Below are positions 3,603 to 61,043 of a stretch of 64,000 nt of DNA, piece after piece. The notes under the pieces are model-generated. The model was not told the DNA's origin and searched no databases. It worked only from the letters and a program-made list of their open reading frames with translations. Origin of the DNA: Antedon mediterranea (taxonomy: Eukaryota; Animalia; Echinodermata); assembly GCF_964355755.1 (NCBI RefSeq), contig NC_092672.1:21961237-22025236 (forward strand). The letters run 5' to 3'. The number at the start of each line of letters is the position of its first letter. Position 1 is the stretch's first letter. The position numbers and the translations under genes are program-made.

Positions 3603-4008
3603 TGTAGTGAATATTTATCTTTTAGTTGGTTTCGAGCTTTCTCAGGCGTATATCCACTCGACGTACACTGCTGTCACTGAATGATAACTCATACAAAAAG
3701 TATATTTAACTCAACTAGAACTTTTATTCCTTGTAATTCGATTAATACATCTTTCTACCACTACCAGTCAAGCCTTAATATATTCTTTATCATTTTTCCG
3801 TTTATCTACTCTGATCTTATTCTCTCTTCTCCTCTTAATATCTATTACATTCCACTTTTATACTGGACATGCAAATTTTAGGCTTCAGAGGAGGATAACA
3901 TTTTCTCTCCAAAATTTATACGATTTTGATTGGCTAATAATATAAGACGGACCTGGTCTAAAGCATCCTTCTCTAAACACAGAGAATCACAACATCAATA
4001 ATATGACA
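3603..4008 (-). repeat. 3' LTR of the Gmr1-like element
   Basis: Matches 9242-9647 with 4 substitutions seen by eye; preceded on the minus strand by PPT AAAAAGGGGAA (4019-4009). Confidence 0.97.
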
Positions 4009-4110
4009 TTCCCCTTTTTGGGAAAAAGATTGTGTCAATCTTTCCAAAAATTTAACATTTAAAACCATTTTACTTTAAACTATCTACTAATAACACCTCT
4101 ATAATATTAT

Positions 4111-6100
4111 TTATGCACGGCTTAATACATCTGCATTTCCATTTAATGATCCTTTCTTGTAAATAACTTTAAATTTATATCCTTGTAAAAACAGAGCCCA
4201 TCTCATAAGTCTAACATTGGCACCCTTCATTGAGTCCATCCATCTCAATGTCTGGTGGTCAGTATGAACTTGAAATTCACAACCATACAGATAATACTTA
4301 AGTTTATTGATAGCCAAAACAATAGAGAGGCACTCTTTTTCTGGCACAGAATATCTCTGCTCATGTACAGATAACTTTCTACTTAAGTACACAATGGGAT
4401 AATCATTACCCTCACCATCTATTTGGCTCAGCACTGCACCTATGCCATAATTTGAGGCATCGGTTTGCAATATAAACATCTTATCAAAATTTGGGGCTTT
4501 TAATACATTATCATCAGTAAGTCGTTTCTTTAAAGTTACGAAGGCATTTTCACATTGTTCATTCCACTTAACGGTATTACTTTTACTCTTTAAAGTTAAA
4601 TCAATCAATGGCTTAGCAATATCGGCATAGTTCTGTACAAATTTTCTGTAATAGCCCGTTAATCCGAGAAATGATCGGACTTGTTTCTTAGACAAAGGTC
4701 TGGGAAACTTTTCCACAGCCTCAACCTTATCAATCATGGGTCTAATTTCTCCATTACCAATCTTATGCCCCAGAAATTCTACCTGAGCATAGGCAATTTT
4801 ACATTTCAAAGGCTTTGCTGTCAATCCAGCACTACTTAATCTTTCTAATACATCATTCAAATGAAAAATATGATCTTTCCAAGTTTGACTATAAATACAT
4901 ATGTCATCTATATATGCCTTAGCATATCCCTCAGTACCTTGTAATACCTTATCCATTAATCTTTGGAAAGTACTAGAGCTATTTTGCATACCAAATGGAA
5001 GTACATTGTAATAATACTGTCCAAATTGTGTAATAAATGCTGATTTGTCTTTGGTCTTAGGATCCAGAGGCACCTGGTAAAATCCTTTAGTTAGATCTAA
5101 CGTAGTTATGTATATTGCGGATGATACCTCATCCAACATTTCGTCTATGCGAGGCATAACATAAGGGTCAAATTGTGTAGTCTTATTTAGTGATCTAAAA
5201 TCTGTCTCCATTCTAATTTGATTCTGGCCTTTCTTCAGGGCAATAATAGGTGCAGCATAGGCACTAACTGTAGGTTCTATTATACCCATAGCCAACATAC
5301 TATCTAATTCTTCTTTCAATTTACCCTTTAATGCTTGGGGCGTTCTATATGCCCTATGCCTTATAGGCATTTCACCATTAGTCTTAATTTCATGTGTCAC
5401 TAAGTGAGTTCTACCTGGTACATCCGAGAATACATTCTGTTGGTACTTTAACAATTCTGTTAATTGTTTAGTTTGTGTATCATTTAAATTACTACTAACG
5501 TTAACATCTCTCCATGTTTGTGATTGATGATAAGACAATCCTATGTCTAATTCACTATCTAACTCATTGTCATAGACTGTTTCATTTAAGTCTACTTCTT
5601 CCATCGACTGAACATTTGTTACTACATAATAACCATCTTTACTTATTTCTACTTTATCATACCATCTCTTTAACATATTAACATGTAGAATTTGTTTTTC
5701 TTTTCTTCTACCTCCTATGTATATTTCATAATTTACATCATTGACCTTTTTTGTAACAGTGAAGGGGCCTTGCCATTTACTGTCTAACTTACTATTTCCT
5801 ACTGGAAGGAATATCAACACTTTGTCCCCTTCTACAAATTCTCTATCAATAGCATTCTTGTTATAATTGTGGGACATAATTTCTTGTTGTTCAAGTTTGT
5901 TTACATTAGCATCTTTCATTAATTCCTCCATTTTTTCTCTTATGTCTAACATGTATTTGATAACATCAGTAGATGTTTCTTCATCTTCTACCCAATTACT
6001 TTTGAGTAAACTCAAGGGTCCCCTCACCTCTCTACCATAAAGCAATTTAAAAGGTGAATGGCCCGTCGCTTTACTAGGAACTTCTCTGTATGCAAACAGA
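4111..6100 (-). pseudogene. pol: pol: integrase C-terminus (GPF/Y), reverse transcriptase and RNase H
   Basis: WQGPF, LDLTKGFYQ, LPFGM, YIDD, TDAS, EKECL, TDH and ADVLSR motifs; separated from the integrase core by a frameshift in a C-run near 6103-6107. Confidence 0.95.
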
Positions 6101-7148
6101 AAGGGGGTATGTAGTTATCCCAATTTTTTCTTTGCTTAACTGTAAGTGTCCTTAGCATATTTTTCAATGTACCGTGAAATCTTTCAACAAGCCCATTGCT
6201 TTGGGGGTGGTACACTGTAGTCAATAATTGATTAATCCCCAACATACTACATATAGATTGCATAATTGAAGACATGAAATTAGTTCCTTGATCATGTACA
6301 ATCTCTTCGGGTAATCCTACTCTAGTAAAGACTTCTATTAGAGCCCTGGCTACTGTTTCAGCTCTAACATTGGGTAACGGGATAGCATCCGGATATCTCG
6401 TAGCATAGTCAATTATAGTAAGCATATATTTGTTATTACGGCTTGTTCTAGATAAGGGTCCAACAATATCTATCGCTATACGTTTAAACGGTGTACTTAT
6501 AATCGGTAATGGTATCAAAGTATGTTTCCTTTTACTTTTACCCTTATCTACCTTTTGGCATTGCTTACAGACTTTACAATAGACTACCACATCTTTAAAT
6601 ATACCTGGCCAATAGAATTGGTTCAGGACCCTACTTTTAGTTTTCTCAACACCCATGTGACCTGCAAATGGCACATTATGACCTAAGTGTAATACACCCT
6701 GTCTACACTGAGTGGGTAATACAATCTGTTCCACTTGGTTATTCTTATCTTTAATACTACTCCAATTTCTCATCAATATACCTTGTCTCATAAAGAAACA
6801 TACCCTATGCTGACCTATTTCTTCTATAGGGACTACCCTGTCAAACACTCCTTTGAGTGAGTCATCATTAGTTTGCAATTTGATCAGTTCTTGTTTAGTT
6901 AGGTTCAGCTTGTGCTGTTGTTCATAAGTTTTATGTTTGACTGTTTTATCTTTAGCTTTATCCTCATTTTCGTCAAACAAATTATTCATTTCTGTTCCAT
7001 TCATATCATCTAAACACTTAGTTTTATTTACTTTGTTGTCATTTACTACTGTTTTCAAGAATTGTACATTAGTTTCTTTAGGCGGCTCTTCTATCGGCTT
7101 AAAGTTACTATCTTTCCCTAACAATATCATTTCGTATTCTACCATCAT
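6101..7148 (-). pseudogene. pol: pol: integrase (HHCC zinc finger and DDE core), upstream of RT
   Basis: H..PFAGH...C..CQ, IDIVGPL, DQGTNF and [17 protein letters not shown] motifs. Confidence 0.95.
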
Positions 7149-7509
7149 TTTCTATTCTGGCTTGCTCCCTAGTTAGGACGAACATTTCTTTAGCCATAGT
7201 TTCCCCACAATTCTGGTCCAAATCATGACCCAATAACATGTCCCTCTGTAATCCTTCGATTACGGCTACAATCACTTTTCCTGTCACTATCTTACTTTCT
7301 ATAGCTACCTCAGCTAAGGGGACGGTAATATCGCCTCCTATACCTCTTAACGTAACCCATTTTCCTGGCAAGTAACATTTGTTAGGCACTAGACTTTCCT
7401 TAACAGCTGACTGGGTACATCCCGAGTCTCTAAGCATAGTTATATCCTGTCCTAATTTTCCTGGTATTGTACACTTCTCCATTTTATTTTCTACACTGAT
7501 TTTATTCCT
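7149..7509 (-). pseudogene. Aspartic protease domain
   Basis: LRDSGCTQS catalytic motif, LLGHD, and VLTREQAR linker; out of frame with both neighbours. Confidence 0.88.
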
Positions 7510-8700
7510 TCACATCTTAAGCCATCTTTCACATTCGGGCCCTTCTTAGTGTCACTAGTCTTTCCTTTTGCTACCATCTTAGGACAATCCCCTATTTTAT
7601 GTCCCTTCTCCTTACAATTAAAGCATAGGCCATTAATCCATTCATTTGAAGGTTCTCTCTGTTGGAAATTTCTACCATAGTTATGGAATTTGCCTCCCCT
7701 TCCGCGATACCTATTGTATCCTTGCTGCCTAGCTCCAGGGTTATTCTGAGTCGTACCATTCTTAGGTTTACTATTTTCTTGGCCCTTATAATACGTAGGC
7801 TTTTTTTCAGAATTTACGGCATTCCAATAGCCACGTCCACCTCTATTAGCTATATAATCATCGGCTATCATAGCCATATCATAGCTCTTATTTACTTGTT
7901 TATCTCTAAGATAAAGCCTCAGATCTTCAGGCATTTTATCAAGTGTCTGTTCCATTATAATTATTTCAATAATGCCTGCAGCATCATCTTCTTTTACATT
8001 AGCACATTTCATCCAACATTTTAAATAATGGGAGAGCTCATTCAGCCATTCCCTGATGGACATATCTTTAACTCTCTTTGAATTTCTAAATTTAAATCTG
8101 TAGGTCTCTGCGGACACATCATACTTTTCTAAGATTGCCTTCTTTAAGGTATCATAATCTACACATTCTTTTACGGTTAAGGATGCATATGCTGTCCTAG
8201 CTTTACCAGACAGTTCAGGTGCTAACCTAGCGGACCACGTATTCTTATCCCAACCTGTGGCTTCTGCCAAGTGTTCAAATGTTCTAAAATATATATCAAT
8301 ATCATCTGATTCCTTCAAAGTAGGAACCTTTACCTTCATTTCATCTACTATATTCCTAGCATTACTGTAGCTAGACCTATTTTCTAATTCCATCATTTTC
8401 ACTCTTTCTTGTGATTCAATTTTTCTTTTTTTTTTCTTGTTCTCAATCTGCTTCTAATCTTAATTGGTCTTGTTGTTATTGTAATTCTAACTTTTTGTTT
8501 TCGGCCTCGGCCTCGAACTTCATTCGAAAATATTTGAGCATCATATCTTTAGGCATACCGCCGGGTATTTCAGGCAAATCAATATCCCTAGCCATGTTAT
8601 CATACATTTCATTGACTTGGTCAACCATATCTTCCCTAGGCCTAGTATCTTTGTCTGACATAGTCTTATCTATATTTTTACCCGATCTTAAAGTTGTCAT
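7491..8700 (-). pseudogene. gag: Gag with SCAN-like capsid C-terminal domain and CCHC knuckle; N-terminal part has two stops and a frameshift
   Basis: YFRTFEHLA, ETYRFKFR, IIMEQTLDKMPEDLRLYL and CFNCKEKGHKIGDC; lesions at 8410-8480. Confidence 0.9.
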
Positions 8701-9227
8701 GCTAATAACAATTTTACTAATGAAATATGTAAACTTATGTATACAAAATATGTTATAAAAGTATTTGTATTACCTTGATTCCATTCAGATATGTAAAAAT
8801 ATGAAATCCACATAAATTTTTAAATGCAATACAATCTAAGACATTAATTTACTTCAAAGTCACAAACAACGTTCCAAGTTCGCTCCGTACAAAAATTTAC
8901 TTTCGAAATAAAAATTAGTTTACAAAGTCAGCTTTGCAAATCTTCTCCAAATTTACTGGGCTTCCTTCTGTTACTTCAGTCTTCTTCTTTCAGACCTCGG
9001 TGAATATATACAGTATCTCCGATGAATATCCAGCAGTCTTGAGCTCAACAGTACTTCTTCTTCGTTGTAATATCCAAACAACGCACGGTATAAAAACTGT
9101 CAGGAATCCAGATCTTCGTAACCATTTAACTTTTTGGTTACTGATTTAACAGGCCCGTAGAGTAGGCACTGTCACTTCTTCTTCTTCTTCTTCTTCTTGA
9201 TACTTAAATCATGTAAACACAAATTTT

Positions 9228-9241
9228 CACCGCTGCCACCA
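9228..9241 (-). promoter_or_regulatory. Primer binding site complementary to the tRNA-Leu 3' end
   Basis: TGGTGGCAGCGGTG immediately follows the 5' LTR on the minus strand. Confidence 0.85.
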
Positions 9242-9647
9242 TGTAGTGAATATTTATCTTTTAGTTGGTTCCGAGCTTTCTCAGGCGTATATCCACTCGA
9301 CGTACACTGCTGTCACTGAATGATAACTCATACAAAAAGTATATTTAACTCAACTAGAACTTTTATTCCTTGTAATTCGATTAATACATCTTTCTACCAC
9401 TACCAGTCAAGCCTTAATATATTCTTTATCATCTTTCCGTTTATCTACTCTGATCTTATTCTCTCTTCTCCTCTTAATATCTATTACATTCCACTTTTAT
9501 ACTGGACATGCAAATTTTAGGCTTCAGAGGAGGATAATATTTTCTCTCCAAAATTTATACGATTTTGATTGGCTAATAATATAAGGCGGACCTGGTCTAA
9601 AGCATCCTTCTCTAAACACAGAGAATCACAACATCAATAATATGACA
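9242..9647 (-). repeat. 5' LTR of the Gmr1-like element
   Basis: 406 bp, TG...CA, about 99% identical to 3603-4008. Confidence 0.97.
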
Positions 9648-13172: not shown

Positions 13173-13756
13173 TTAAATGAAAATGTGGTAGATGAAAAAA
13201 TCAAAAACAACTATGTAAGGAAAAAATAAGCTTGTTAATGAAAATGTGTTACAGATAATAATATGTTTAAAAAGAGGAAGCTATGTAATCTATGTTATAA
13301 TATGTAAACAAATGAATAAAACTCTTTAAATAAGTATATGTAAACAAACATTCTAAATATAATGATATGTAGGCCTATAGTGTATAGTGAAAAATATATG
13401 TAAAGAGAACAGTTGTATGGAAATAAAAGTGGGATGAACTCACATAAGATAAAAAAAAAAAAACAATGTTCATTAATTATTCTAACTAATTATTTGTATT
13501 AATATCGTAAATGATTGAACAACCGATCTGCCGATGTAGGATAATATATCATAGTAATACAATATAACCAAAACATATGAGATTTCCAAAACCTTCTGCA
13601 ATACTCATCCGGCATTATTATCAGTGTTGATCCATCTTTTACGATATGTTGTTTATGATTTAACAACGAGTTAAAACAAAACTGTTGAGTTTTTTTGTGT
13701 ATTATTGAATAGCTTTCCATTGTTTTTATGACCAAGTTGAGTTTTATTAACTTGTT

Positions 13757-14028
13757 GAGGGTATTAAGCTATTGGTTTCCAGCTGATGAGTGCAATATGC
13801 ACTCCTGCATAGACAAATGCATGTTTCGTTTTATGCAGGAGATCCAATCAATAGCCACCTCCCTAACTGTAAGGATCGAAACAGCCATAACATCATCGAT
13901 AATATTTCCAATTCAAATATTTGATAATTAATAATTTAATGTAAAATAACACTTTTTAAAAAGTAATTTTCGAACATTTTCTAAACAAATTAAATGAAGA
14001 TGATGATATGACTGTCCTGGGATAAACC
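13757..14028 (+). ncRNA. Expanded type I hammerhead ribozyme-like RNA, copy A
   Basis: Stem I CCAG(13779-82)/CTGG(14017-20); core CTGATGA-G (13783-90), C-GAAA-C (13877-82) and GTC (14014-16); stem III CAGCCAT..CATCATC / GATGATG..ATGACTG. Confidence 0.8.
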
Positions 14029-15209
14029 CGTTTCAATTTTAAAAGTGTTTTTCATTTAATTTTGTTTTCGCAATGACTCCTACAAAATATAATTATGTCT
14101 GTTTATAACGAAAGAAAGCGCAATAGGGCCTAGCCTATATGATATAGTTACGTACGTCGTATGTGTTTTTTGTTTACCGTTTATAATTACATTTTTAAAC
14201 AATAATCCTTCAAATTCTAAATAGCCTATAGGCCTATAACTTGCCTTACAAAATACTTTGTACCTTTATAATCATAAATATTCTGATCATAAATGTTCTG
14301 ATCATGTTATTTATAGTTTACCCATTAGTCTAGCCTAGCTTGTCTGTTCCTTCTTCATCCTCATTCACCTCAATTTACCGAAAATTAGGCCAAGCCTAGA
14401 GATAGGAATAGGCCTACTACTAGTAGTACTTTTCAGATGCCTGTTTACACTCATATCATAGTAGTCCGAGTTCAAGTCCTTTTTTACACAAAGCAATATT
14501 CATAATTATATTATTGAGTATGGTGGTGTATGATAAACATTTTAATAAATATATGCACAAAATAGTTTTCACATTGTGTCTGGAGAGACCAAAATAATAA
14601 TAATATATATGCCTAGGCCTAGTAAAGCTTAGTATCAAAGACCTAGTATCAAATAGGCGGAAAGAGCCTAGGCCTACGTAGGATACGCACGGGGGCGGGT
14701 GTGGTAGGCTAGCGGATGAGGAAGGGGAGGGGGAGTCTGGCAAGGCAGGCTGCTGTACCTTTTTGACTTGCAATGCAACACAAGTATGAGCTTCTAGGCC
14801 TATATATATTTCAACTAAAGGAGCTACTATGATACTATATAGGGTATAACAATAAGGTGTAATTAATAAATATTAATCACAACGAATAAATCTACAAATT
14901 TATCAAAAACACCTACGGTTTGAATGCGTTGTACGTCGCTGCTAGTAGCCGACCGGGCTAGAATTGCTGTGGTCTGGTTACAAATTTAAATCAAGGCGGG
15001 AACGAGATGCGTAAATGTCACGCGCACGCAAGTTACCATGGCGCGCTGTGTGCTATTTTCACAAGCACATTCAATTTATAATTATTTTATGATAATTAAT
15101 TACAGGCCATACTAACGTGTCTAATTACAACTCCCTGGTGCGATGCTGTTACTCTGGAGTACTAATCTTAGGCCTATGTAAAGTTAATACAAACAAAATT
15201 GTAATTTTA

Positions 15210-15698
15210 AGAGTTTTTAGTTAGGAAATCCCATTCCATAAAACAATGAATGCTTAAAGCTGTCGTCAAGACAACCATGACTTTCCCCTAGAACTTCCCA
15301 CGCCTAAAGAGTTGAGTCAGTTTCTAAATATAGATATTGGTACCTGCTCTACAGTCTACACAAATTAAAGCCGGCCGTCCGACACACCAGACCACGTGAC
15401 TGTGTCAATGAACTGAACGAGAAGACTGCTGCTGCCTTTCTATGTTGACACTTTCAGAGTTTTTACTTAGGAAATCCCATTCCATAAAACAATGAATGCT
15501 TAAAGCTGTCGTCAAGACAACCACTTTCCGCTAAAACTTTCCACGCCTAATAAGTGGCGTCAGTTTCTAAATATAGATCTTGGTACCTGCTCTATAGTCT
15601 ACACAAAGAGATGCCGACAATTAAAGTCGTCCGACAAGCAAGACCACGTGAGTCAATAAACTGAATGAGGAGATTGCTGAATTCCTTGACACTTTTAG
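15210..15698. repeat. Tandem duplication, two copies of about 246 bp
   Basis: AGAGTTTTTA.TTAGGAAATCCC at 15210 and 15456, collinear similarity through TTGACACTTT. Confidence 0.9.
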
Positions 15699-16099
15699 GC
15701 TTATAATTAATATTCGAATAATTTTGCAAGAGGGGCGTTTACTCAACGAAAGCGTTATTTTTTTGGTGTAATACCATGGTACATGTATAATCAAATAGCC
15801 CCTATGAAAAATTACAACACAATTAATATAGAAGTGACAAAACATAGTAAAACTTGTATCAATATGCTTGGTAAATTGTAGATGAATGAATTCTACTACT
15901 AAAAATAGAAATCTGTTGTAATAGAATATTGTTGTTCCCTATCCAAATAAATACGGTAATATGAAAATAATTCTTTTTCCACTATAAAATACACATAATA
16001 CACATTATATATATATATATATATTTCTTTTATTCCTGTCCATCCAAGCAGCACTTGCCAGCTTTATACTATGACGTTATCCAAATTCCTTCACTTTTC

Positions 16100-16215
16100 T
16101 GGCTGTTTTACTTTTCGTTTTGATTTAGCTTTTTGCTTTATTTTGTATCTCCATTGAGATCCAGCCACTGATACCCACAGCATTGTCATTTTTTCAGTAA
16201 TTTGCCTTTGGATTT
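16100..16215. repeat. Dispersed repeat; inverted copy at about 35080-35190 and partial copy at 36121-36180
   Basis: Shared TTTTGATTTAGCTTTTTGCTT...CCACAGCATTGTCATT sequence. Confidence 0.7.
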
Positions 16216-16760
16216 ATATATATATATATTATATATATTAAAATGACAAGTACCTTATAGAAAAACATTGTAAAAATACAAAATACCGATCATTTCCTTT
16301 TGACATTTTGGCAAATTAAAACGCCATGTTGCATTTATTATGACGGATGCAAATCAAATTGTAAACAAAATTAGGCCTACTCATAGTTTTCTCCTTTTTA
16401 GTGATTAATTGGTCAATCTCATATTGCCGTACGAAAGTCATCATTTCATTTGTCTTTTTATTATGATATCGAGATAATTGTTTTGCACCAGTTAGCAAAT
16501 TCATTTCTATATACCCGTGTAATCTTCATATTTCACTATAATAATTACCATTCTAGAATACAGCTATAACAGTCAATGAAAACATTAAAATCTTTTTCAT
16601 TTAACGTATTTAATATAAAACCTTCAAAGCACTTCAAGACGGTAGGCCTATATTCATTGCAGCAAGACACTGTTGGTTGTTGTGAACGTTCAACCTTTCA
16701 GCAACTGTAGGATTTGTCTAAACATTATTTTTAACAAATTCAATTAGTATAAAAAAACTG

Positions 16761-17015
16761 GGTTTATTCCCAGGACAGCCATCATCATCATGTGTTTTAT
16801 AATAATTGATCTTTGCTGGACACAATTCAAAAAATACCTCATAAATATTTGTTTAAATAATAGCTTATTATTGATGATGCAATGGCTGTTTCGATCCTTA
16901 ATGTTATAGGAGGTAACTATTGATCGGATCTCCTGCATGAAACGAAACATGCATTGTCTATGCAGGAGTGCATATTGCACTCATCAGCTGGTAAACCAAT
17001 AGCGTTAATACCCTC
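16761..17015 (-). ncRNA. Expanded type I hammerhead ribozyme-like RNA, copy B
   Basis: Minus strand GGTTTA-CCAG-CTGATGAG...CGAAAC-AGCCAT...ATGGCT-GTC-CTGG-GAA-TAAACC; predicted cleavage between 16774 and 16773. Confidence 0.82.
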
Positions 17016-17679
17016 AACATATTAAAACAACTCAACTTGGTTATAAACATGTTAATCGAAAGGTATGGTGTAATAAGTAAATATAGTAAGGTAAATGTGA
17101 TGATAATACGATAAGAAATCAACTCGTTGTTAGTATTACCATGGAGAAATAAGTTAGGACTCCATGGTATTACTGAAGATGAGGTGTTAAATAATGATAT
17201 AATAATGTGAATAACTATAACGATCAAAGTAGCCGTGGCGGCGCAGCAAAAGGTTTGGTACATAAAGTAAACTGTCTTTAGAATTAATACTATTGTAAAA
17301 AGGGATGCACGGCTGGTTTGATCATTGTGGTACATGTATTTAAAACAAAAAATAACTCAATTCAAATCAAAAACAACATTAAACCTATATAATAAAATAA
17401 TAACTTACCGTCTGTTACGAATTACTGTATTACCTAATGAAATGAATACACCGGCGATTTCGAAATTAAGACGCACCAATGTTACGCTAAATATTAAGTT
17501 TGTGGAAGAGTAGAGAAGTCCAAATCCCGTCTCAATGCTAAATAGATGGTCTCAACTCTCGATTACAAATCCCACTAATCGATGGAATCATTAAACAAAT
17601 CCCGCCATGATATTGCTAAATGAATTCATGCTTAGCCGATGATAGGGACAAATCCCGTCTATCCTTATCCCGTCGTAGC

Positions 17680-18098
17680 GGCGGGATCCCGAACAAAAAA
17701 ATCCTGGTTGACCGATGGGAGCCACAAACCAAATGACCGAATCCCGCCATCCCGAATTTGCGATATTTTCCCGATCCCGACGGGATGGCCGTTTATCACC
17801 GGGATCCCGTGATATCACGAATTTGCGATCTTTTCCCGATCCCGATCCCGGTGGGATGGCCGATTCTCACCGGGATCCCGTGATGTCCCGATTTTGCGAT
17901 TTTTTCCCGATCCCGATCCCGGCGGGATGGCCGATTCCCACCGGGATCCCGTGATATCCCGAATTTGCGATGTTTTCCGGATCCCGATCCCGGCGGGATG
18001 CGCGAATCCCGGTGGGATTCGGGCATCCCGGCGGGATCCCGTGACATCCCGGTGGGATCCCGGCGAGATCCCGCATTTATTTTTTATGGGGATCTGTA
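17680..18098. repeat. GC-rich array of ~70-bp units built from CGGGATCCCG/ATCCCG motifs, probably subterminal repeats of a DNA transposon
   Basis: Units begin C.CGA.TTTGCGAT at about 17751, 17817, 17887 and 17958; many palindromic GGGATCCC motifs. Confidence 0.85.
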
Positions 18099-18152
18099 AT
18101 TCAGTATCAATGGTCAAGAACGTCAACCTTATTGAAAGTTAATCATAATCAA

Positions 18153-46219: not shown

Positions 46220-46539
46220 TTAAATAGTTTCTAGAGCTAGTGAACGTTCCTGTAGATACTTTTTAACTTTACTTTTAAAACAACAAACAGTTTGTGATTC
46301 CTTAATGTTAATTGGTAAATTATTCCATTCTTTAATAGCATTGTAAAAAAAGGTCACATGTGCCATTGGCTTGATAGTTGGGATTCTAAAATTAAAATTG
46401 CATCCCCTAGTATTGTAATTATGACTGTCTGAAATTCTAATAAAACGATTGCATAAACAAGGTGGACAACAATGATTATATATTTTAAAAACATGACAGA
46501 CTCTAAGAAATTCGACACGGTCTTGAACTTTTAACATAC
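46220..46539 (-). pseudogene. LINE ORF2 C-terminal segment
   Basis: MLKVQDRVEFLRVCHVFKI...HNYNTRG...FFYNAIKEWNNLP..IK; in frame with 52770-51336 once the Gypsy and one TSD copy are removed. Confidence 0.9.
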
Positions 46540-46840
46540 TGTAGAGGCAATTTGCATATGTGTTAGCAGGTGTAACGAACGGCATGCAAACCTTTTTATT
46601 CTTTGTCTCTCTCTCTCAACTACCGACCGTCGAACAAGCAGGACGTATTTATTTTACTTACCGTTGTATGTTAACACAAGGAACTTTGCGTATCCTGTAC
46701 ATGTACAGAAGAAACCATTATTATTGGAATATATTATGTGTATATAATTACGGAGCCAAGTATAAGAAGTTACTAATGATATTTGAACCCAATGCATGCT
46801 CTCACAACACAGTATAGTGGGTAAGTTGGATCTCACTAAA
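46540..46840 (+). repeat. 5' LTR (TG...AA)
   Basis: Differs from the 3' LTR by 2 substitutions and one CT unit, counted by eye. Confidence 0.96.
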
Positions 46841-46841
46841 G

Positions 46842-46859
46842 TGGTGACCCCGACGTGAT
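46842..46859 (+). promoter_or_regulatory. Primer binding site, tRNA-Trp
   Basis: TGGTGACCCCGACGTGAT, the 18-nt complement of the tRNA-Trp 3' end. Confidence 0.93.
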
Positions 46860-46991
46860 CTAACGAGAGTGCTTGGAATATTTAAATATTTTTTCTTCGT
46901 CGTTGTTGCAAGATTACTTTGAGTTGTCGTTGTTTGATACGTGAATGGAATTATGGCGAGACCTTCTCCGGGAAGAGCTACACCGATCAAA

Positions 46992-47804
46992 ATGGCCGCT
47001 AGAATGAATGAGGCACCACCTGTGGCGGCTGCTGTAAGTTTAAAATTGCCGCCATTTTGGCCGAATGACCCACTTATTTGGTTTGCGCAAGTGGAGGCTC
47101 AGTTTGTTACCAGAGGAATTACGGCTGAGGAAACAAAGTATTCGTATATAATTGCTTCTTTGCCGCCTAATATCGCACAGGAGGTTCGGGATTTATTGCT
47201 AAGCCCTCCATACCAGAGACCATATACCCATTTGAAATCGGAATTGGTTAAAAGGACATCCGTGTCGGAGCAAAAGCGTCTTCATCAGTTGTTAACAACG
47301 GAAGAATTAGGTGATCGCAAGCCTAGTCAGTTACTACGCAAGATGTACCAATTGCTGGGGGATCGTGATTTAGAGAAATCCATCCTGAAACAGTTGTTTG
47401 TGCAAAGATTGCCTACTAATGTTCAATTGATATTAGCGTCCACCCGTGAAGATATGGACCTTTCAGATCTGGCAGCGTTGGCCGATAAAATTTTGGAAGT
47501 TTCTCCACCACCACCTACTATTGCCACGACAATTAAGGATACGGGTGCACGCGCAACGTCAGACGAATTAAGAGAATTGAGAGCTGAGGTTAGTAAGTTG
47601 ACCAGCCTCGTTTCTTCCTTGGCGAAACAAGTCAGAGGCAGAAGCCGTAGTAAACAACGTGAAAGCCGAAAACGCTCGCCCTCTGCTACATCTAATGATG
47701 GTTTATGCTGGTATCATCATCGATATGGTAACAAGGCACATAAATGTAATTCACCATGCTCTTTTTCCTCACAGAAGGCGGGAAACGACCAAGCCAGCGA
47801 CTAG
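46992..47804 (+). CDS. gag: Gag, CsRn1 type
   Basis: [31 protein letters not shown] and [18 protein letters not shown] (CHCC) motifs. Confidence 0.94.
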
Positions 47805-47845
47805 AGACGGCGACAGCTGCTGGCGTTGGTGAAGGTAGTCGTCTA
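47780..47845 (+). promoter_or_regulatory. -1 ribosomal frameshift signal
   Basis: Slippery heptamer G GGA AAC in Gag phase (47780-47786) in the gag/pol overlap, followed by stem CCAAGCCAGC / GCTGGCGTTGG. Confidence 0.85.
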
Positions 47846-50800
47846 TTTTTTATTTCTGATCGTACTTCGGGACTTAGATTCTTAGTTGACACTGGAGTGG
47901 AGGTTAGCGTGTTACTTCCATCAATGACAGACAAGTTGCACCGGAAAACTGACTTTGTATTGCAAGCAGTAAACAAATCTACAATATCTACTTATGGGGA
48001 GCGTTCCTTAACAGTTGATTTTGGATTTCGACGCACGTATAGGTGGATATTTACTGTTGCTGATGTGCCTAATGCGATTATTGGGGCCGATTTTTTACGA
48101 CGTTTTGGTTTAATTGTGGACTTAAAAAATCGCCAACTTGTCGATGCTACTACTAGTATCAGTGTCAAGGGAATAGAATGTACCCTAGCATCACTTAGTC
48201 CGGTCTTTCCGACCCCAAAAGTAAATCCTCCTTTTCAGGAAATATTAAACAAATATAAAACGATTACCAAACCATGTTTTCGTAATGGAAGCGTGAAACA
48301 TAATGTTACACATCAGATAAATACAAATGGGCTGCCAGTTTGTGCCAGACCTCGCCGATTGTCTTCTGAGAAATTGAAAATTGCACGGGCTGAATGTGAT
48401 CATATGTTACAATTAGGAATTATACGGCCCTCAGATAGTAACTGGTCGTCGCCGCTACACATGGTGCCTAAAGGAACAACAGGTGATTGGAGGCCATGTG
48501 GGGACTACCGAGCGTTAAATAATGTGACTGTTCCAGATATGTACCCCATCCCTCACATTCATGACTTTACCGCGACTCTCTCGGGTTGCAAGATTTTTTC
48601 TAAGATAGATTTGGTACGTGCATATCATCAAATACCCGTCGAACCTAAAGACATTTCAAATACCGCTATTACTACGCTGTTTGGCATGTTCGAGTTCTTA
48701 AGAATGCCATTTGGTCTTCGAAATGCGGCACAGTCATTTCAGCGTTTTATTGACCAGGTGTTGCGGGGTATGAATTTCGTGTATGCTTACATTGATGACT
48801 TACTTATTGCCAGCATGGATACTGCTGAACATGAATTGCATCTTCAGGCACTTTTTAAACGTCTCGATGAATTTGGTATCATTGTTAATCCGTCCAAGTG
48901 TGTATGGGGTGTGTCTTCACTACAATTTTTAGGTCATCAAATTAACGAGTTTGGGATACAGCCATTGCGTTCCAAGGTTGAGGCAATTGAACAGTTTCCA
49001 GTACCAGATACTGTGCGTAAATTACGTGAGTTTCTGGGATTAATTAATTTCTACAGACGGTTTATACCTAGATGTTCGGATTTGATTCATCCATTAACTG
49101 ATTTACTTGTCGGTAAACCTAAAAAGGCGATTGAACTATCTCCGACGGAAATTGAATCGTTCAACAAGGTCAAGTATGCACTCGTCGAATCAACTCTTCT
49201 AGAACATCCACATCCTGACGCTGCATTGTGTTTAATGGTAGATGCGTCCAATTGCGCTGTAGGTGGTGTGTTGCAACAAATGGTAGCAGGGATTTGGCAT
49301 CCACTTGCATTTTTTTCCCGACGTCTAAATCCGGTGGAAAGGAGATATAGTACTTTTGGACGGGAATTACTAGCTACCTATCTTGCAGTTAAGCATTTTC
49401 GCCACGTTCTAGAAGCTAGAACATTTTATATCTTAACTGACCATAAACCTTTAACACACGCATTACGTTCCAGCGCAGATCGATATTCGCCGCGAGAGAT
49501 ACGTCACTTAGACTACGTCTCACAGTTTACCACGGACATTCGACACGTCAAGGGTAGCGAGAATACCGTAGCAGACGCACTGTCACGTATGGACTTGAAT
49601 GCAGTGTCAGCTTCATCGGAGCTTTCTATTGATTATGACGTCATGGCTAGGCACCAGCAAAAAGATGCGGAGTTGCTCGAACATCAGCATAAGTCTGTTT
49701 TCAAGTTGAGAGACGTACCGATAGCGACTAGCGGCGGTACTATTGTATGCGATGTCACCACTGGTAATCATAGACCATTCGTGCCCAAAGGTATGCGTAG
49801 GTTAGTGTTTGACTCTTTGCATTCACTTTCTCATCCAGGGATTCGAGCTTCACTAAAATTAATCGCTTCACGGTATGTTTGGCCTGGTATGAACAGTGAT
49901 GTGCGGACATGGGCTAAGTGTTGTTTAAAATGCCAGAAGAATAAGGTTCATCGCCACACTGTGACACCATTAGGTACGTTTGCGACGCCCGACATAAGAT
50001 TCGACCACGTCCACATAGACTTGGTAGGACCACTACCTGTATCGGATGGTTATACTTACCTACTCACATGTATCGATCGCTTTACAAGATGGCCAGAGGC
50101 CATATCAATCACCAATATTACCGCTGAAACTGTAGCCAAAGCGTTTGTCACTGTTTGGGTATCCAGATTCGGTGCGCCATCCACCATCACTACAGACCGT
50201 GGTCGTCAGTTCGATTCGGCACTATTCACCGCCCTATCTAACATGTTGGGCACAAAACGCATTCGAACAACATCTTACCATCCTATGTCAAATGGATTAG
50301 TTGAACGTTTTCACCGCCAATTAAAGGTTTCGCTTAAGGCTCAAGATGATCCTCAGAAGTGGAGTGAAACTTTACCTTTAGTTCTTCTGGGTCTCCGGAC
50401 AGCGGTCAAAGTTGATTTAGGCTGTTCTTCATCGGAACTGGTGTATGGAGCAACCCTGAAACTTCCAGGGCAGTTTGTCGCGCCTACTGATATCGCCTCA
50501 CATGAGCCTGCGAATTACGTACATAGATTGCAAAGACACATGCAGAATATTCGACCAGTGCCAACACGAGCGAATCAACGCACCGCACAAATCCACGATT
50601 TGCGTGAATGTACTCACGTGTTTGTTCGTTGCGATAGCGTAAACAAACCTCTTCAGTCTCCTTACAATGGGCCATTTAAAGTTTTAAACAGAACTGACAA
50701 ATACTTTGTTTTGAGCATCGCAGGTAAACATGAAACTGTTAGTTTGGACAGACTAAAAGTCGCCTATGTAAATAATGGTAAAGCTATTAACAACTTTCCA

Positions 50801-50935
50801 GAATCGTCAAGGCAACCGGAAGCAGGGCTTTCCCCAACCGCAAGTGCTATTCCAGTCGCACCTCCACCACGGCAAACGCGTAGCGGACGACATGTACACT
50901 GGCCACGTAAGCTTGCAGATTATGATTGCGGTTGA
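47786..50935 (+). CDS. pol: Pol polyprotein PR-RT-RH-IN, expressed via -1 frameshift
   Basis: [37 protein letters not shown] and YNGPF motifs; no stops. Confidence 0.96.
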
Positions 50936-51036
50936 AGAAATTCTGTTAGTTTATTGTGCTGGAAGTTTTATACTAGAATCATTTTTTTTTATTCATCGCT
51001 CACTAACATTTCATTTGCGATCTAGAGGGGAGCTGA

Positions 51037-51335
51037 TGTAGAGGCAATTTGCATATGTGTTAGCAGGTGTAACGAACGGTATGCAAACCTTTTTATTCTT
51101 TGTCTCTCTCTCAACTACCGACCGTCGAACAAGCAGGACGTATTTATTTTACTTACCGTTGTTTGTTAACACAAGGAACTTTGCGTATCCTGTACATGTA
51201 CAGAAGAAACCATTATTATTGGAATATATTATGTGTATATAATTACGGAGCCAAGTATAAGAAGTTACTAATGATATTTGAACCCAATGCATGCTCTCAC
51301 AACACAGTATAGTGGGTAAGTTGGATCTCACTAAA
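51037..51335 (+). repeat. 3' LTR (TG...AA)
   Basis: Ends CTCACTAAA, followed by TSD ATAC at 51336-51339. Confidence 0.96.
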
Positions 51336-52770
51336 ATACCAACGTCGTTTAGCTGAGATTGACCAACATGAGATCGGGAACCTAACTTTTTTATAAAACG
51401 AACCATTTTGTTTTGAGTCGTTTGTAATTTTGATTTTAAATTTTTATTTACCGTAGAAGACCATGAGCAAACCGAATAATCGAACATCGGTTGGATTAAA
51501 GCAAAACTAAGAATTTTGCGACAATGTGAATTAAGAAATGATGATTGTCGGTACAGAAATTTCAGTCTGCCGTTTGCTTTGTTTATAACAGAGCGGGCAA
51601 TGACGTCTCCTGATACATTTTGGTCAATCTCAATACCTAGATATTTGATAGATTTTGATCCATTTATAGTCGTTCCAAAGCAATCAATATAGAATTCGTT
51701 TACTTTGCTTAATCTACGTTTAGAACCAAACAGGATGCATTCGGTCTTACCCATATGAAGCGAAAGTTGATTGTCGATCAGCCAATTATTGCATGATATG
51801 AGATTGTTTTGGAGTTTAGATTGGATTGCGATTGGATCTTTATGGGAGTAAAAAATTGCACAATCGTCAGCGTACAAAACAACTTTACAATCACTTTCGA
51901 TACTAGATGGTAGGTCATTCACGTAAATAAGAAACAAGAGAGGACCCAAAAGGCTACCCTGGGGGACTCCACATCCAATCTCAATAGAGTTCGATTTGGT
52001 ACCTTTAATATCGACAATCTGATTTCGCCCAGACAGGTACGCTTGAAACCAACCGATAGACCGGCATCCTAGATACTTAAGTTTTTTACACAAAATATCA
52101 TGATTGACCGAGTCAAAGGCCTTTTGGACATCGAGTAAAACCATACCCGTAAATAAACCATTTGACATTTGAACTCTAATGTGATCTCTAAGATGGATAA
52201 GACATGTGTCGGTAGAAAATGATCTACGAAAACCGGATTGATGATCGAAGATAAGTTGATTCCTTTCAAGGTAATCGGAAACTTGTATATATACCACCTT
52301 CTCCAGAATTTTCGAAACTGAGGAGAGAATGCTTATAGGTCTGTAATTGTTAGCCTCAGTTCTGGAATTCTTTTTATGAAGGGGCGTGACTTTTGCGAGT
52401 TTAAAATCCGAGGGAATACGTTCGTATTTAATGGAAAGGTTAATTATATGTGTTATTGGTATTTTAATATTAGGAGCTCCGTCTCTAAAAAAATTTGCAG
52501 GAATCTGATCAAGGCCTACACTTTTAGATGGGTTGAGATTTCTCAATTCCTCTTCGATAAGGCTCTCGTCAATTTCTTCGAGAGAAAAACCAGAAACATG
52601 TTTGATTTTGCTATTATAGTAATTTTTAAAGGCATTCGAACCCACACTAAAAAGGTTACTGGGAGAAGGCAATTTCTTCATTAAATCGGAAGCAATATTT
52701 GCGAAGTATTTATTGAAATAATTTGAAACTTCGCTTTCATTATGGCAAAGATTCCCATTAACATCTAACG
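51336..52770 (-). pseudogene. LINE ORF2 reverse transcriptase segment
   Basis: NYRPISIL, QSGFR, DVQKAFD, GVPQGS, YADD and KYLG motifs; no endonuclease domain (5' truncated). Confidence 0.95.
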
Positions 52771-54440
52771 TGCAAAAAATACAATACAAAACTATGTTCT
52801 TGACTAAAAAATCAGTTTGATTAGCAATTTTGCTAAACAAAATTTTCAAATGAAATTTTTCCCTGCTATAGTACAGATCGTATTCGGCTTCACGTACTAG
52901 CCTAAATCATTTTTTTTATGGGTGAGAGCCATTCTGACTAGGGATTCCATGCCACAATGGATGGCTATGTTAAAACATGGGGCCTACGGGCCTAGCTAGC
53001 CTACTAAACGATTGGCCCATAAATAACAAAACTCAGTGGATTCCAAACCCATCCTATCAACCAAACTCAATAATAAACAATATAACCTAAAACGTTCTAC
53101 AAAATCGGCTGTAAATATTGAGGCAAAACAAGGTCCGATTGCCGTCCGCACGTATAGTGGCTCGATCGTCTAGTAGGCTTAAAATAGTTTACTCTCCTAA
53201 AAAGCGGAAGCTGCATCAAGCAAGTAGACCTAGTAGGAAGGAGACCTAGCCGATCCGGCCCAGTTAAAAATTGAGCTAGCTAGTGTAGTAGACCCTATGC
53301 GAATTGATACTACCAGTCCTTTTACTAGGCTACACTTGTTAAAATTAGCAATACTTATGTTTACAAATATTCCAACTCTCTCATTCGAGCTATATTATCT
53401 ATACCATTCAGGTAGGTCGAATCGACCTTCAATCAAATACTGTACATCGTTCATGTTGTGATTATAGACGGGGTATACTTGACCCGACCAGTTTGGTATT
53501 GTATACTGTATCTGCTTATCACGTGACGATGCCAGGAATGGGCAGAGAGCACGTTTATCGTCTCGCTCAGAAGGAATGTACAGACGTTACGCTTCATTGA
53601 TTTTTAAGGGTTTTTCCCTATTGTCAGTGCGAAAATCGGCAAACGTAAACTGAATCTCCAAATGATTTTACACAATTGTGATGAATTTTCATAGAAAATT
53701 GACATTATAATAGGGAAGACCGACTAAAATTACATCAGATAAGCATAATTTTACAAAAGTAATTGATATGGTTAATGATAACGAGTCGTCGGAAGATCGA
53801 CCATTTCACAAATTTTCCTATTCTGTAACAGTGTCATATCGCCGTAGCTTCACTTCACAGCCTTCATTCTGCTTCACCGCTCACTTTATAATAAGTGAAA
53901 CTTTTACCGTTCAAGAGACAAACAATTATATTTTATTTTTTACTATTCATTTTAAACCCGGAACCCCGCTTTAAAAGTAAATAATAGTCAACCAGAAATA
54001 AAACTTGGTTTACTAAAGCTTTGGTTGCCAACGCAATGTAGGCGCTACGCAAGTGAGTTGACCAATAACAAGCAACAGTTCCAATAATCCATCACATTGT
54101 GATTGGTCAATTTGCTTGATTTAATTTACAAAAAAATTGGATAGACTACAGACAAATGGACAGACTAAATGTTGGGACAAACAAACTTATTACATGCAAT
54201 TATTACTCAGTAATCACCTCTGTAGTCCCATGGGTACTCTTTTAAATAGTTATTGATTACAGTGCCTTAAAATATTCTTTAAATAATAATTGTGTAAATG
54301 AATTTGACCAGAACCTTTACCATGCCAATCCATATCAATACTTTGAGTTACAATTGTAGATAATATATTGATAATGATATTCATTTGTAGCTATACACTA
54401 GGCTTCATTATCTCTTAAGATTAATAGAGTATGCGTATTC

Positions 54441-56170
54441 AGCAGTATGATCATACCATACCTCCATGATCATACACACTGTTTATATTTTGTGTGGTGT
54501 AACGAGTACAGGGGTAGGCCTATAGCTACAGCAGTAGGTCATAATCACTGTTTATATTTTATGTGGTGTAGTAGGTACAGTGGTAGGCCTATACTACAGC
54601 AGTATGATCATAATTACTGTTTATATTTTATGTGGTGTAGTAGGTACAGTGGTAGGGGTTCCTATACTACAGCAGTATGATCATACTCACTGTTTATATT
54701 GTATGTGGTGTAGTAGGTATGTCACGATAAATATGGTCCGGGGCCAAAATCGGTCCGGCCGGACCAGTTTTGGCTCTAAAATTGTGGCCAAAAGCAGTCC
54801 GCCACTGCCAAAATCGGTCCGGGCTTTTCTTCTGTCGATTTTAATTGAATTACTAGGCCTATGATGCTGTTTTAAAGTTGTTTATGGTTAGAAAAATATC
54901 CCATGATATATATTAGTAAGTTATCTTGTCGGATAAATACTATAAATAAATCTTTTTTATCTAAAAACATGACTTAGGTGTTCACTCATATTTCGGCCTG
55001 CCACACACTCACATGAACGGGTATGAGACGCTGATATTGCCAGCTAGATTTTATTTATGATTGAGGCATTTTTCCTTCCTCAGCCTAATCAATATTGGAT
55101 AATTGTTTTATAATAATTGTATTGAATTGATATATTGATTGATTAACCATAAATAATTAATAAATTAAATTGTTTTTAACATCCATCATGGGGAAACGAA
55201 GATGTTAAAAAAGAAAAAAATGGATTAAAAACAGGCAGAGATACATATTGTATACAAAAAGCTTAACAATTAGTATTAATTATTGATGAGTTACTACTAG
55301 TACTAATAATGATAATAAAAAAAACAGGCTTAATTTATAATATTAAAATAACAAATAAATCCCCGTAGTTTTCAATAATGACTAATCATGGCCTTTTTTT
55401 TAATGATATATACATTATGACTCATTTTGCGCACCATATATTTGTAAGACCGGACCATATTTGGCGGCCAAAAACAGTCCTACTGCCCGGACCGATTTTA
55501 TCCAGGCCGGACCAGTTGTGGCGGCCAAAATTGGTCCGGCCGGACAGGTTTTGGCAGCCATAAATGGTCCCCCGGACTGATTTTGGCAGCCAAAACTGGT
55601 CCGCCGGACCGATTTTGGCCCGGACTGATTTTGGTGTGACAGGTACAGGGGTAGTCCTATACTACAGCAGTATGATCATACTCACTGTTTATATTTTATG
55701 TGGTGTAGTAGGTACAGTGGTAGGGGTTCCTATACTACAGCAGTATGGTCATAATCACTGTTTATATTTTGTGTGGTGTAGTAGGTACAGTGGTAGGGGT
55801 TCCTATACTACAGCAGTAGGTCATAATCACTGTTTATATTTTGTGTGGTGTAGTACGTACAGGGGTAGGCCTATAGCTACAGCAGTAGGTCATAATCACT
55901 GTTTATATTTTGGGTGGTGTAGTAGGTACAGGGGTAGGCCTATAGCTACTGCAGTATGATCATAATCACTGTTTATATTTTATGTGGTGTAGTAGGTACA
56001 GTGGTAGGGGTTCCTATACTACAGCAGTATGATCATACTCACTGTTTATATGTTATGTGGTGTAGTAGGTACAGTGGTAGGGGTTCCTATACTACAGCAG
56101 TATGGTCATAATCACTTATAGAGCTGGAAATCATTCAAATATACACACTGTTTATATTTTGTGGTGCAAT
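54441..56170. repeat. 58/59-bp minisatellite array, about 13 units, split by a MITE
   Basis: Unit CAGCAGTATGATCATA.TCACTGTTTATATTTT.TGTGGTGTAGTAGGTACAG.GGTAGG..CCTATACTA at 54441-54719 and 55642-56170. Confidence 0.95.
54720..55641. mobile_element. Ginger-like MITE
   Basis: TGTCAC...GTGACA ends, 4-bp TSD GGTA, subterminal CCGGACC/GGTCCGG/TTGGC..CCAAAA repeats. Confidence 0.8.
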
Positions 56171-57026
56171 GGGTACAGTAGTATGGCTGCATCAGTGTGA
56201 TCATACTCACGTAGGGCTGGAAATTAAAAGTATGGTAGTATATGTGACCTGTTTTTAGTCTAGTTGACAAAGTTATTGAACTTGATTCTTCATTATGTAA
56301 ACATTTAAATATTTGAATTAATACTAAAGATTTCTTAAAACAATAATTGCATTGCTCCGATACTATCAAGCAGTGATACGACCAGTTCTCGAATATGCCT
56401 GTGCTGTTTGGTCCCCGAGTTTATCTAAAGCACAATCTGACCGAATCGAACATGTCCAAAGAAGAGCGTGTAACATAATATACCCCGATGGTACCTCGTA
56501 TGCTGATACCCGCAGATACCTTAACATCATCACTCTATCTGAACGCCGCGAGAAGTTGTCAAGAAAATTCTTTGATAAAATGAAAAAAGAAGATCATATA
56601 TTATACTCTCTCTTACCTAAACCTCCCACACACAACCATCAGCTCCGACGCGTAGATCGTTCACCCTCTTTAAAGTCCGGACACAACTCACAAAAAACTT
56701 TCCACGGAGTTTTCAATGATTGGTGAATGATCATAAACTGAGTTATGATAAGCAAATTGTGAACCCTTTTTGGTTTGTGCATGGAGAAATCAGTTAGGAA
56801 GGAGTAACATCAAAGAATACATCAAACGAATAGGCCACCCCGCCGCTAATTGGATTATCTGACTGTTACGTTACATTTAATTGCCGTTGATCTGTCGCTT
56901 GTTAGATTTGAGCATGCGCATATCCATTGCTTTCCTGTGACGCGTCATCAAGCGAGACTCGTTGTTGTTGATGATCACACACACGCGGCGACCATACAGT
57001 ACACACACAGCAGAAGAATAATTATA

Positions 57027-60595: not shown

Positions 60596-60753
60596 TGTTG
60601 GCTCTAGTATGATTAAATATATACTGTTTTGTATTTTTTTGTGTGTGTGATGAAATAAATAACGACAATAGCTAAATTAAATCTCAATTGTATTTTCGTT
60701 GGTTCTGAAAAGAACCGTTTGGTTTGAAAAAGTTTGCTGATCATAAATATCAT

Positions 60754-61043
60754 TTATGCATTTGGTGTCTTCTTCCTTTGAAGAGGTGAGTCATCAATAG
60801 TTTGGTCAACAATTTGGCTGCGGCAGTTGCCTCTCCTGGATGCCTTGGAACAGTTCGCAGCTACATACAGTGCATGCATATTGTGGCCAAACTGCATTGA
60901 TGTTGGGTTTGTGTTACTTCCACCACATCCTCTCTGTTTACTGAAGTACCGTTCTAACGGATCTTGATTATACTTCGCACTTAGAACACACTCTACCCCT
61001 GGCAGGTCCAGTAATTTTTTAGTCAACTCTACAAACGAATTAA
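60754..61043 (-). pseudogene. Last exon of a P-element/THAP9-type transposase (RNase H catalytic E region)
   Basis: Acceptor CAG at 61046-61044; NSFVELTKKLL...LSAKYNQDPLERYFSKQRGCGGSNTNPT...RGNCR; upstream exons not found. Confidence 0.88.

Follow-up and report, generated by a model that had tools for sequence, protein, structure and literature searches.

The window, that is, the whole 64,000-nt stretch of DNA analyzed, contains two copies of a repeat, and we hold it a slightly better than even bet that the copy on the plus strand (copy A) carries a complete, discontinuous type I hammerhead ribozyme, that cleavage after C14016 is likely, that a pseudoknot between loop II and the leader is likely to aid it, and that the choice of a CUC trinucleotide between two GAG partners is no regulated switch but a loose sliding equilibrium that arises from an insert of 51 nt. 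Both copies have the core letters, stems I–III and the GUC site, as well as the complementarity of leader and loop and the GAG repeat that encloses the insert. Selection for cleavage very probably acted on this sequence. With its core at 13783–13881, the hammerhead is a larger object than the span 13757–13877 picked out in an earlier, sequence-only reading, which ended at 13877 and so left out 13878–14029, where stem III, the predicted cut and the 3′ half of stem I lie.

An 8-bp hairpin in the leader of copy A (13733–13754) is predicted in A only (p 0.98, against 0.00 in B), where it masks the outermost leader/loop complementarity. It is followed by the 5′ strand of an outer pseudoknot segment, GAGGG (13757–13761), whose register is ambiguous, the partner being either 13858–13861 or 13861–13864, and by the leader strand of the main pseudoknot helix (13768–13774), which is contiguous with the 5′ strand of stem I (13775–13782). 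Stem I has a distal part, 13775–13778 with 14024–14027, and a proximal part, in which CCAG at 13779–13782 pairs with 14017–14020. The catalytic stretch CUGAUGA (13783–13789), C3 to A9 in the conventional numbering of the hammerhead core, runs into the first GAG (13788–13790). The other half of the core, G12-A13-A14-A15.1 (GAAA, 13878–13881), lies 88 nt away at the head of the segment that holds the 5′ strand of stem III (13878–13897). Stem III, a 15-bp stem formed by 13881–13897 and 13999–14015, had a probability near 1 in both copies by nested folding. Its AU-rich, unconserved loop of about 100 nt (13898–13998) is identical between A and B in 46 of 102 columns, and is swapped for other sequence in one contig of sequencing run X6. 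The last segment (13999–14029) comprises the 3′ strand of stem III, the GUC triplet (14014–14016) and, directly after it, the partner of CCAG in the 3′ strand of stem I, with the predicted cut between 14016 and 14017. A competing hairpin at 14017–14030 sequesters the 3′ strand of stem I (p 0.89–1.00 in nested folds) and has an A at 14030 in most of the sequencing depth. In the tail (14031–14086), other family members could be aligned to about 14086.

A descriptor for stem III, GUH and stem I, derived from the two 5′ strands, had two fits in 128,000 nt, one in A and one in B, which identifies each as a complete type I hammerhead sequence. CUGAnGA and GAAA occur in order in A and in B, and stem III, with its A15.1–U16.1 pair, is followed by H17 and then by stem I, which closes on the strand before C3. 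Known alignments have no more than 1–2 nt between CUGAnGA and the adjacent stems, as described in PMC10085705; by that rule, stem II does not join A9 and G12 directly here. The mode of working would be that of a pseudoknotted type I hammerhead, but since the continuity of stem II fails, the sequence is best filed as a variant. Rfam gave no hammerhead match in the window at the gathering threshold and none in 13300–17400 at E-values up to 10, as expected from the long insertions; nor did any other family of relevance come up.

The interruption is the insert (13790–13840 in what we call register 1), which is made up of hairpin IIa (13790–13802) and hairpin IIb (13803–13840), has a GAG direct repeat on its flanks and includes the CUC at 13802–13804. 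Stem II is predicted to be a 5-bp helix (13841–13845 with 13873–13877) closing a 27-nt loop II (13846–13872), so that the segment 13841–13877 would start with G13841, the predicted partner of C11.1 (13877), standing in as G10.1, and the two hairpins would be extruded between it and A9. We consider this insert at A9/G10.1, rather than the pseudoknot or a switch, to be the unusual feature of this hammerhead. Penelope-type hammerheads keep one conserved extra base between positions 9 and 10.1 (PMC4209133). A literature search, which covered mainly the text of open-access papers, returned no report of a natural multi-way junction or long insert at A9/G10.1. Such an insert could cripple the core.

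Copy B lies on the minus strand at 16755–17066, with the leader strand at 17003–16997, the core at 16987–16981, the insert at 16980–16931, stem II formed by 16930–16926 and 16897–16893, the loop strand of the pseudoknot at 16922–16916 and the predicted cut between 16774 and 16773. These two copies, the only ones in the window, are 3.2 kb apart on opposite strands and converge. They are 87% identical over 202 nt of the core region, and conservation in both copies is therefore weak evidence. Identity nevertheless tracks the structure: it amounts to 93–100% in the core, insert and stem II (identical columns: stem I and core 14/15, insert 49/51, stem II and GAAA 14/14) and to 78% in the 3′ strand piece (25/32), but drops to 45% for loop III and to 26% for the 3′ flank (8/31). 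A CpG-rich, promoter-like stretch lies between the converging copies at 14900–15060, and a 246-nt tandem duplication occupies 15199–15679. A strong 14-bp hairpin upstream of copy B (17174–17132, minus strand) is absent from A.

The sequence-only reading had paired the leader with the loop of the third hairpin, and it had the positions right: GCUAUUGG at 13768–13775, UCAAUAGC at 13848–13855, GAGG at 13757–13760 and ACCUC at 13857–13861. Copy B retains every pairing that was named, with a G–U at the outer end of the main helix. This helix comprises seven Watson–Crick pairs, 13768–13774 with 13849–13855, and adjoins stem I in both copies; running from loop II to an extension of stem I, it falls within the class of Perreault et al. 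(2011), which calls for at least four such pairs. The loop strands together span 13849–13861, the outer one being 13858–13861. For the GAGG/CCUC piece, a rival register (13758–13761 with 13861–13864) was favored in A, with p 0.97 versus 0.02. All 11 pseudoknot pairs are kept in the two-copy alignment, one of them changed on one side (G–C/G–U) and none on both sides.

How far this complementarity exceeds chance depends on what is counted. A contiguous helix this strong adjoining stem I arose in 99 (A) and 72 (B) of 10,000 shuffled loops, and with other 20-mers of the window in the place of the leader, a helix of the same strength was found in 460 (A) and 434 (B) of 25,592 cases. When the position was left free, the energy of the whole duplex was matched by 179 (A) and 234 (B) of 5000 shuffles. 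An 8-bp run alone appeared in 936 (A) and 1649 (B) of 5000, and the length of the helix is thus unremarkable by itself. The complementarity is above chance, modestly. Invariance of the six inner loop positions of the pseudoknot would be expected by chance in 21% of cases. The only pseudoknot change in the contig tables described below is the G–C/G–U one, and a loose end seen in two X6 contigs has two leader-strand changes with no matching loop-strand change listed; for the most part, the tables do not let changes in the two strands be linked.

Free RNA in nested models formed the leader/loop helix and no stem I; the probability of stem I was at most 0.10 in either copy, the 3′ hairpin out-competing it, and in copy B the leader/loop helix itself ranged from p 0.01 to 0.57 in longer contexts. 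With stems I, II and III forced, the ensemble lay 4.0 kcal/mol (A) and 4.7 kcal/mol (B) above the free one. The pseudoknot helix runs on from stem I without a gap and crosses stems I and II a single time, and stacking in its seven pairs is worth −10.9 (A) and −10.0 (B) kcal/mol before any pseudoknot penalty, which could offset the cost of the ribozyme frame. About 40% of hammerheads are predicted to use a stem I–II pseudoknot contact, and in one of them the pseudoknot was demonstrated by mutation and rescue (PMC3088659). The proposal that the pseudoknot supplies the stem I–II contact is likely, given its known-class position, its above-chance complementarity and the energy offset; that no pair is changed on both sides leaves it short of proof. 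We think it probable that the leader/loop pseudoknot forms and activates. Taken alone, it would be a further example of an already known contact.

The CUC pairings also exist as the sequence-only reading described them, in both copies: CUC (13802–13804) can pair with GAG at 13788–13790 or with GAG at 13839–13841, all correctly placed, and branch migration is a fair description of the choice between them. The two GAGs form a direct repeat on either side of the 51-nt insert, and whichever of four registers is used to excise the insert, the remainder is one and the same canonical core with a 5-bp stem II. Owing to this repeat, the core sequence is identical in all four registers, so that CUC only swaps one set of G8, A9 and G10.1 for a second set and shifts the point at which the insert exits. 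Registers 1–3 lay within 1 kcal/mol of one another in both copies, at 20 and 37 °C and with the Turner 1999 and 2004 parameters. Register 0, in which a single G13790–C13877 pair closes a four-way junction, was 6–10 kcal/mol worse in nested models, which have no coaxial or tertiary terms. With stems I–III held, CUC paired with G8 in 19–20% and with A9 in 54–55% of the ensemble; with the frame held, G13790–C13802 had p 0.99 and G13841–C13877 p 1.0. Register 1, in which G8 and A9 are unpaired and the insert bulges out between A9 and G10.1, is thus predicted for about 45% of molecules, and the predicted penalty of CUC sliding is about two-fold, as for a soft equilibrium rather than a switch.

Two inhibitory roles have to be weighed against this soft equilibrium. 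In the switch proposed by the sequence-only reading, CUC would hold G8 and A9 and keep the ribozyme off until branch migration moved it to the second GAG. Apart from the presence of both pairings in both copies, this gains from the absence of any substitution row at CUC and the first GAG in the contigs aligned on 16885–17032, from a prior of about 0.01 for an exact CUC at that spot, and from folding during transcription, where capture of G8 in copy A is near-complete until hairpin IIb has been made (p 0.98 at 13810, 0.01 at 13845). That capture, however, is confined to the stage before hairpin IIb is finished, when transcription still has about 170 nt to go to the cleavage site. The second GAG, when displaced, restores the same core sequence, a branch migration of three steps should equilibrate fast, and the GAG repeat can be accounted for by how the insert arises. 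Mutually exclusive folds, one of them coreless, as in a riboswitch, were not found; the registers are near-isoenergetic in two parameter sets, each leaves the full core sequence, G8 is captured only about 20% of the time, and no ligand or protein input is evident. The on/off part of the claim is not supported, and we consider such a switch quite unlikely. The other role is that of a clamp, in which the leader/loop helix, extended to 10 bp and with its outer segments, would take up the distal strand of stem I and make loop II too rigid for stems I and II to close. Nested folding of A gave the 10-bp form a probability of about 1.0 and left stems I and II with about 0; the complementarity spans most of loop II, beyond what the pseudoknot could hold, and the instability of the B helix in longer contexts belongs beside these observations. 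Crossing helices, however, cannot coexist in nested models, and the evaluated frames of stems I and II without the clamp scored lower (−46.0 versus −42.4 in A, −50.7 versus −43.7 in B). In three hammerheads that were tested, the pseudoknot helix forms ahead of the remaining assembly (PMC3088659), and the helix here adjoins stem I, as expected for an activating contact; an inhibitory clamp is unlikely, if less so than the switch.

Two further alternatives are that the repeat is a dead relic or that the insert gates splicing. Parts of the region were contained in ten sequencing runs, representing two organism labels and two unlabelled samples; runs X1–X4 may derive from the organism of the window itself. 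On 13600–14100 we aligned 31 contigs from X1, 19 from X5, 40 from X6 and 37 from X7, with the summed depth peaking at about 13720–13900, read depth on contigs not being equal to copy number and the contigs of X5, a putative RNA run, mirroring those of X1. The hammerhead repeat is plainly multi-copy in both organism labels. On 16885–17032, X1 gave 23 contigs and X6 gave 27, while X9, with one contig of depth 2, and X10, with none, were not used. Contigs had been filtered before the variant tables were made, and changes closer than about 30 nt to the end of a contig or of the reference are almost absent from them, which leaves the leader strand poorly covered on 16885–17032. There were 20 substitution rows at 19 of the 82 positions from 16915 to 16996: eight at unpaired positions, four that keep or restore a pair, and eight that would break one if the partner were unchanged. 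Seven of these last eight occur in one to three low-depth contigs, one such contig belonging, by its depth, to the subfamily without a leader strand; the eighth, at 16992, occurs in 11 contigs together with a change at 16990, and as we read the pair of changes, with the partner out of view, it would lengthen proximal stem I to 5 bp. The stretch 16957–16989, which matches the core, has no substitution row, and N7, which we take to be the one free position of the core, is changed in one loose end. Loop IIa tolerates an extra base among the contig variants.

If the rearrangement that put the insert into the core had killed the ribozyme, the similarity between copies would reflect recent copying only. 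The lack of a precedent for the insert and the weakness of stem I fit this reading, as do loose ends at 16986 (two X1 and three X6 contigs, thus in both organism labels) that lack the pseudoknot strand of the leader, the 5′ strand of stem I and C3. These copies form a subfamily of natural dead copies that is usable as a neutral control for covariation. Against a relic, identity in loop III has dropped to 45% while the cleavage-site strand beyond it was kept, one X6 contig keeps both strands of stem III around a different loop, and the insert-bearing core is near identical in the two organism labels; we therefore regard a dead relic as very improbable. The splicing alternative places a 3′ splice site in the insert: with an upstream donor joined to 13838/13839, the RNA would lose its leader and its core's 5′ half and escape cleavage, whereas unspliced RNA would be cut. 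Splice motifs were scored against the general splice-site consensus. In both copies, an acceptor-like motif (13824–13838 in A) runs right up to the second GAG, and in copy B a consensus donor lies 475 nt upstream of the acceptor, in a module at 17403–17433 (minus strand, GT at 17408) that is recognized again in X1 and X5 contigs. The intron end of Drosophila virilis Penelope maps into its hammerhead (PMC4209133), and Penelope-type repeats carry 5′ introns (PMC8557442). Both motifs, however, were picked out post hoc by a crude pattern that matched 131 acceptors and 8 donors in 128,000 nt; the donor module was not found upstream of A, at 17290 another acceptor-like site is closer to the donor, there is no downstream ORF, and the acceptor, a sequence motif only, is buried in the stable hairpin IIb. 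A splicing gate is improbable. Equally improbable is a broader scheme of an active hammerhead whose catalytic strand is broken by a 51-nt module from the opposite strand of a minimal hammerhead, in which either GAG serves the core, a 3′ splice site is hidden, and sliding of the junction decides between splicing (escape) and cutting.

Returning to the pseudoknotted hammerhead with its sliding insert, we envisage that the leader/loop helix and the insert would fold first, and that stems II, III and I would close about 160 nt later, the pseudoknot stacking on stem I and making up for the weak stems. The slide of CUC onto A9 and G8 might lower the rate by no more than a few-fold. Once the RNA is cut, the 3′ product would be freed by the hairpin at 14017–14030. 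All 5 bp of this hairpin are present in B and, across three runs, in most of the depth, and it may be a better candidate for control than the CUC choice. The role would be transcript processing of a Penelope-like element, of which these copies may be the 5′-truncated ends. In copy B, a hairpin at 16773–16758 (minus strand) has the polyadenylation signal AAUAAA in its loop, 5 nt past the predicted cut and followed by a U-run; A has GAUAAA.

The insert may itself derive from a hammerhead. On the minus strand, 13802–13828 reads as C11.1-GAAAC followed by a palindromic loop, GUC and one arm of a stem I, as in a minimal hammerhead without a CUGAnGA of its own, and hairpin IIa with CUGAUGA provides the matching 5′ half. 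In its letters the insert looks like a rearranged minimal hammerhead, a resemblance noticed post hoc. The antisense half-hammerhead pattern occurs in five places in 128,000 nt, two of them copies A and B. A template switch at the shared GAG would yield the GAG repeat as a by-product.

Several other structures considered for the insert and its surroundings were set aside. For a second working hammerhead on the minus strand, both CUGAnGA and a partner for stem I are missing from their places. A 49-nt mini-intron, by which the insert would be removed, would need a donor far from the splice-site consensus. A look-alike of a telomerase template in loop II of A is not kept in B. A 7-bp pairing of 13822–13828 with 13877–13883 (−6.3 kcal/mol as an isolated duplex) was absent from the listed helices, and one of its bases varies in five contigs.

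As the host element, a truncated end of a Penelope-like element seems rather probable by analogy, based on the scattered copies, the opposite-strand pair, the tail of about 70 nt past the cut and the intron signals. Of the features expected of dispersed copies, those seen are multiple copies, which can be aligned up to some 70 nt beyond the cut, and a pair on opposite strands. No ORF with reverse transcriptase and GIY-YIG domains was found adjacent to the copies among the 15 of 21 ORFs of at least 110 aa scanned in the window; the domains in the scanned ORFs were those of a gypsy-type reverse transcriptase, a non-LTR reverse transcriptase and a transposase only. In X1 and X5 contigs, a stretch resembling the 17433–17403 module directly follows the leader, which suggests a longer, modular or partly tandem element. 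Scans beyond the region gave no further elements of this kind: three scans of viral contigs returned 6, 0 and 2 loci, and the eight examined lacked the rest of the element, while one scan of metagenome contigs returned 51 loci, none aligning beyond the pattern and the best two covering 23–30 nt.

With the Penelope pseudo-LTR hammerheads described by Cervera and De la Peña (2014, PMC4209133), the present sequence shares the type I order, scattered single copies, opposite-strand pairs, material between positions 9 and 10.1, a short stem I and intron signals nearby. The animal members in that account are minimal, with a palindromic stem III and one bulged base, and fungal and protist members have a large helix III; the hammerhead here, in contrast to the animal members, has a 15-bp stem III, would be capable of acting as a monomer and carries 51 nt at the bulge site. 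The pseudoknotted type I ribozyme in the intron of human C10orf118, as presented in PMC3088659, has the same type I order, a full consensus core and a Watson–Crick stem I–II pseudoknot in place of the loop–loop contact, with a helix that can pre-form. It is a single conserved intronic site, whereas the present hammerhead is a multi-copy repeat with 7 bp and an outer segment, a 27-nt loop II, a loop III of about 100 nt and the 51-nt double hairpin at A9/G10.1. The eight Naiad cases labeled HHR_half_core by Craig et al. (2021, PMC8557442) likewise have core halves beyond the spacing of standard descriptors; theirs are described as 35–50 nt apart, to either side and with no fold assigned, whereas ours are 88 nt apart, with complete stems and what would be a defined fold. 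A 20-nt stretch of the core was not found in supplement file 1 of that paper.

The pistol-like PK hammerhead of Zhan et al. (2024, PMC11300833) also has its active frame held by a pseudoknot, which by that description takes the place of helix II; the present sequence has a helix II and its pseudoknot comes on top of it, which ruled out that assignment. The discontinuous Clec2 hammerhead assembles in the same way across a long unconserved loop, but as reported in PMC6765202 and PMC6155905 it is of type III, has its insertion in helix I, lies in an mRNA 3′ UTR and has no core insertion. Non-LTR retrozymes (PMC7229834, 10.64898/2026.07.22.740005) are similarly non-coding animal repeats with type I hammerheads and a link to Penelope; theirs are described as head-to-tail tandem units, whereas the window held two solitary copies, 3.2 kb apart on opposite strands, and no tandem. 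If the present hammerhead cleaves, it would break the rule of at most 1–2 bases between CUGAnGA and stem II, and it would stand for a class that standard descriptors and Rfam models miss, with core halves 88 nt apart and a 100-nt loop III. At A9/G10.1, whole RNA domains would then have a natural place to dock, which could serve in building sensor ribozymes, and such sequences might account for some of the unassigned half-core motifs in Penelope-like elements.

The surroundings are eukaryotic and repeat-rich, with gypsy-type and non-LTR reverse transcriptases, a transposase remnant and a histone-type stem-loop. An LTR retrotransposon at 3603–9541 (minus strand) has LTRs that are 99% identical, a SCAN-domain gag and an integrase upstream of the reverse transcriptase, an order that we take to be Gmr1-like. 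A second gypsy-type element (46595–51335, plus strand), with LTRs 97% identical and a long pol ORF, is flanked by a fragment of a non-LTR reverse transcriptase (51149–52906) and a further piece of one (46220–46615), which suggests a nested insertion. The histone 3′ stem-loop match (60675–60721, minus strand; 34.7 bits against a threshold of 34) lies just downstream of the transposase-like remnant (60754–61086) and not of a recognized histone ORF. Tandem arrays occupy 1858–2337 (60-nt units with an open frame), 17590–18140 (71-nt units) and 54470–56175 (units of about 73 nt).
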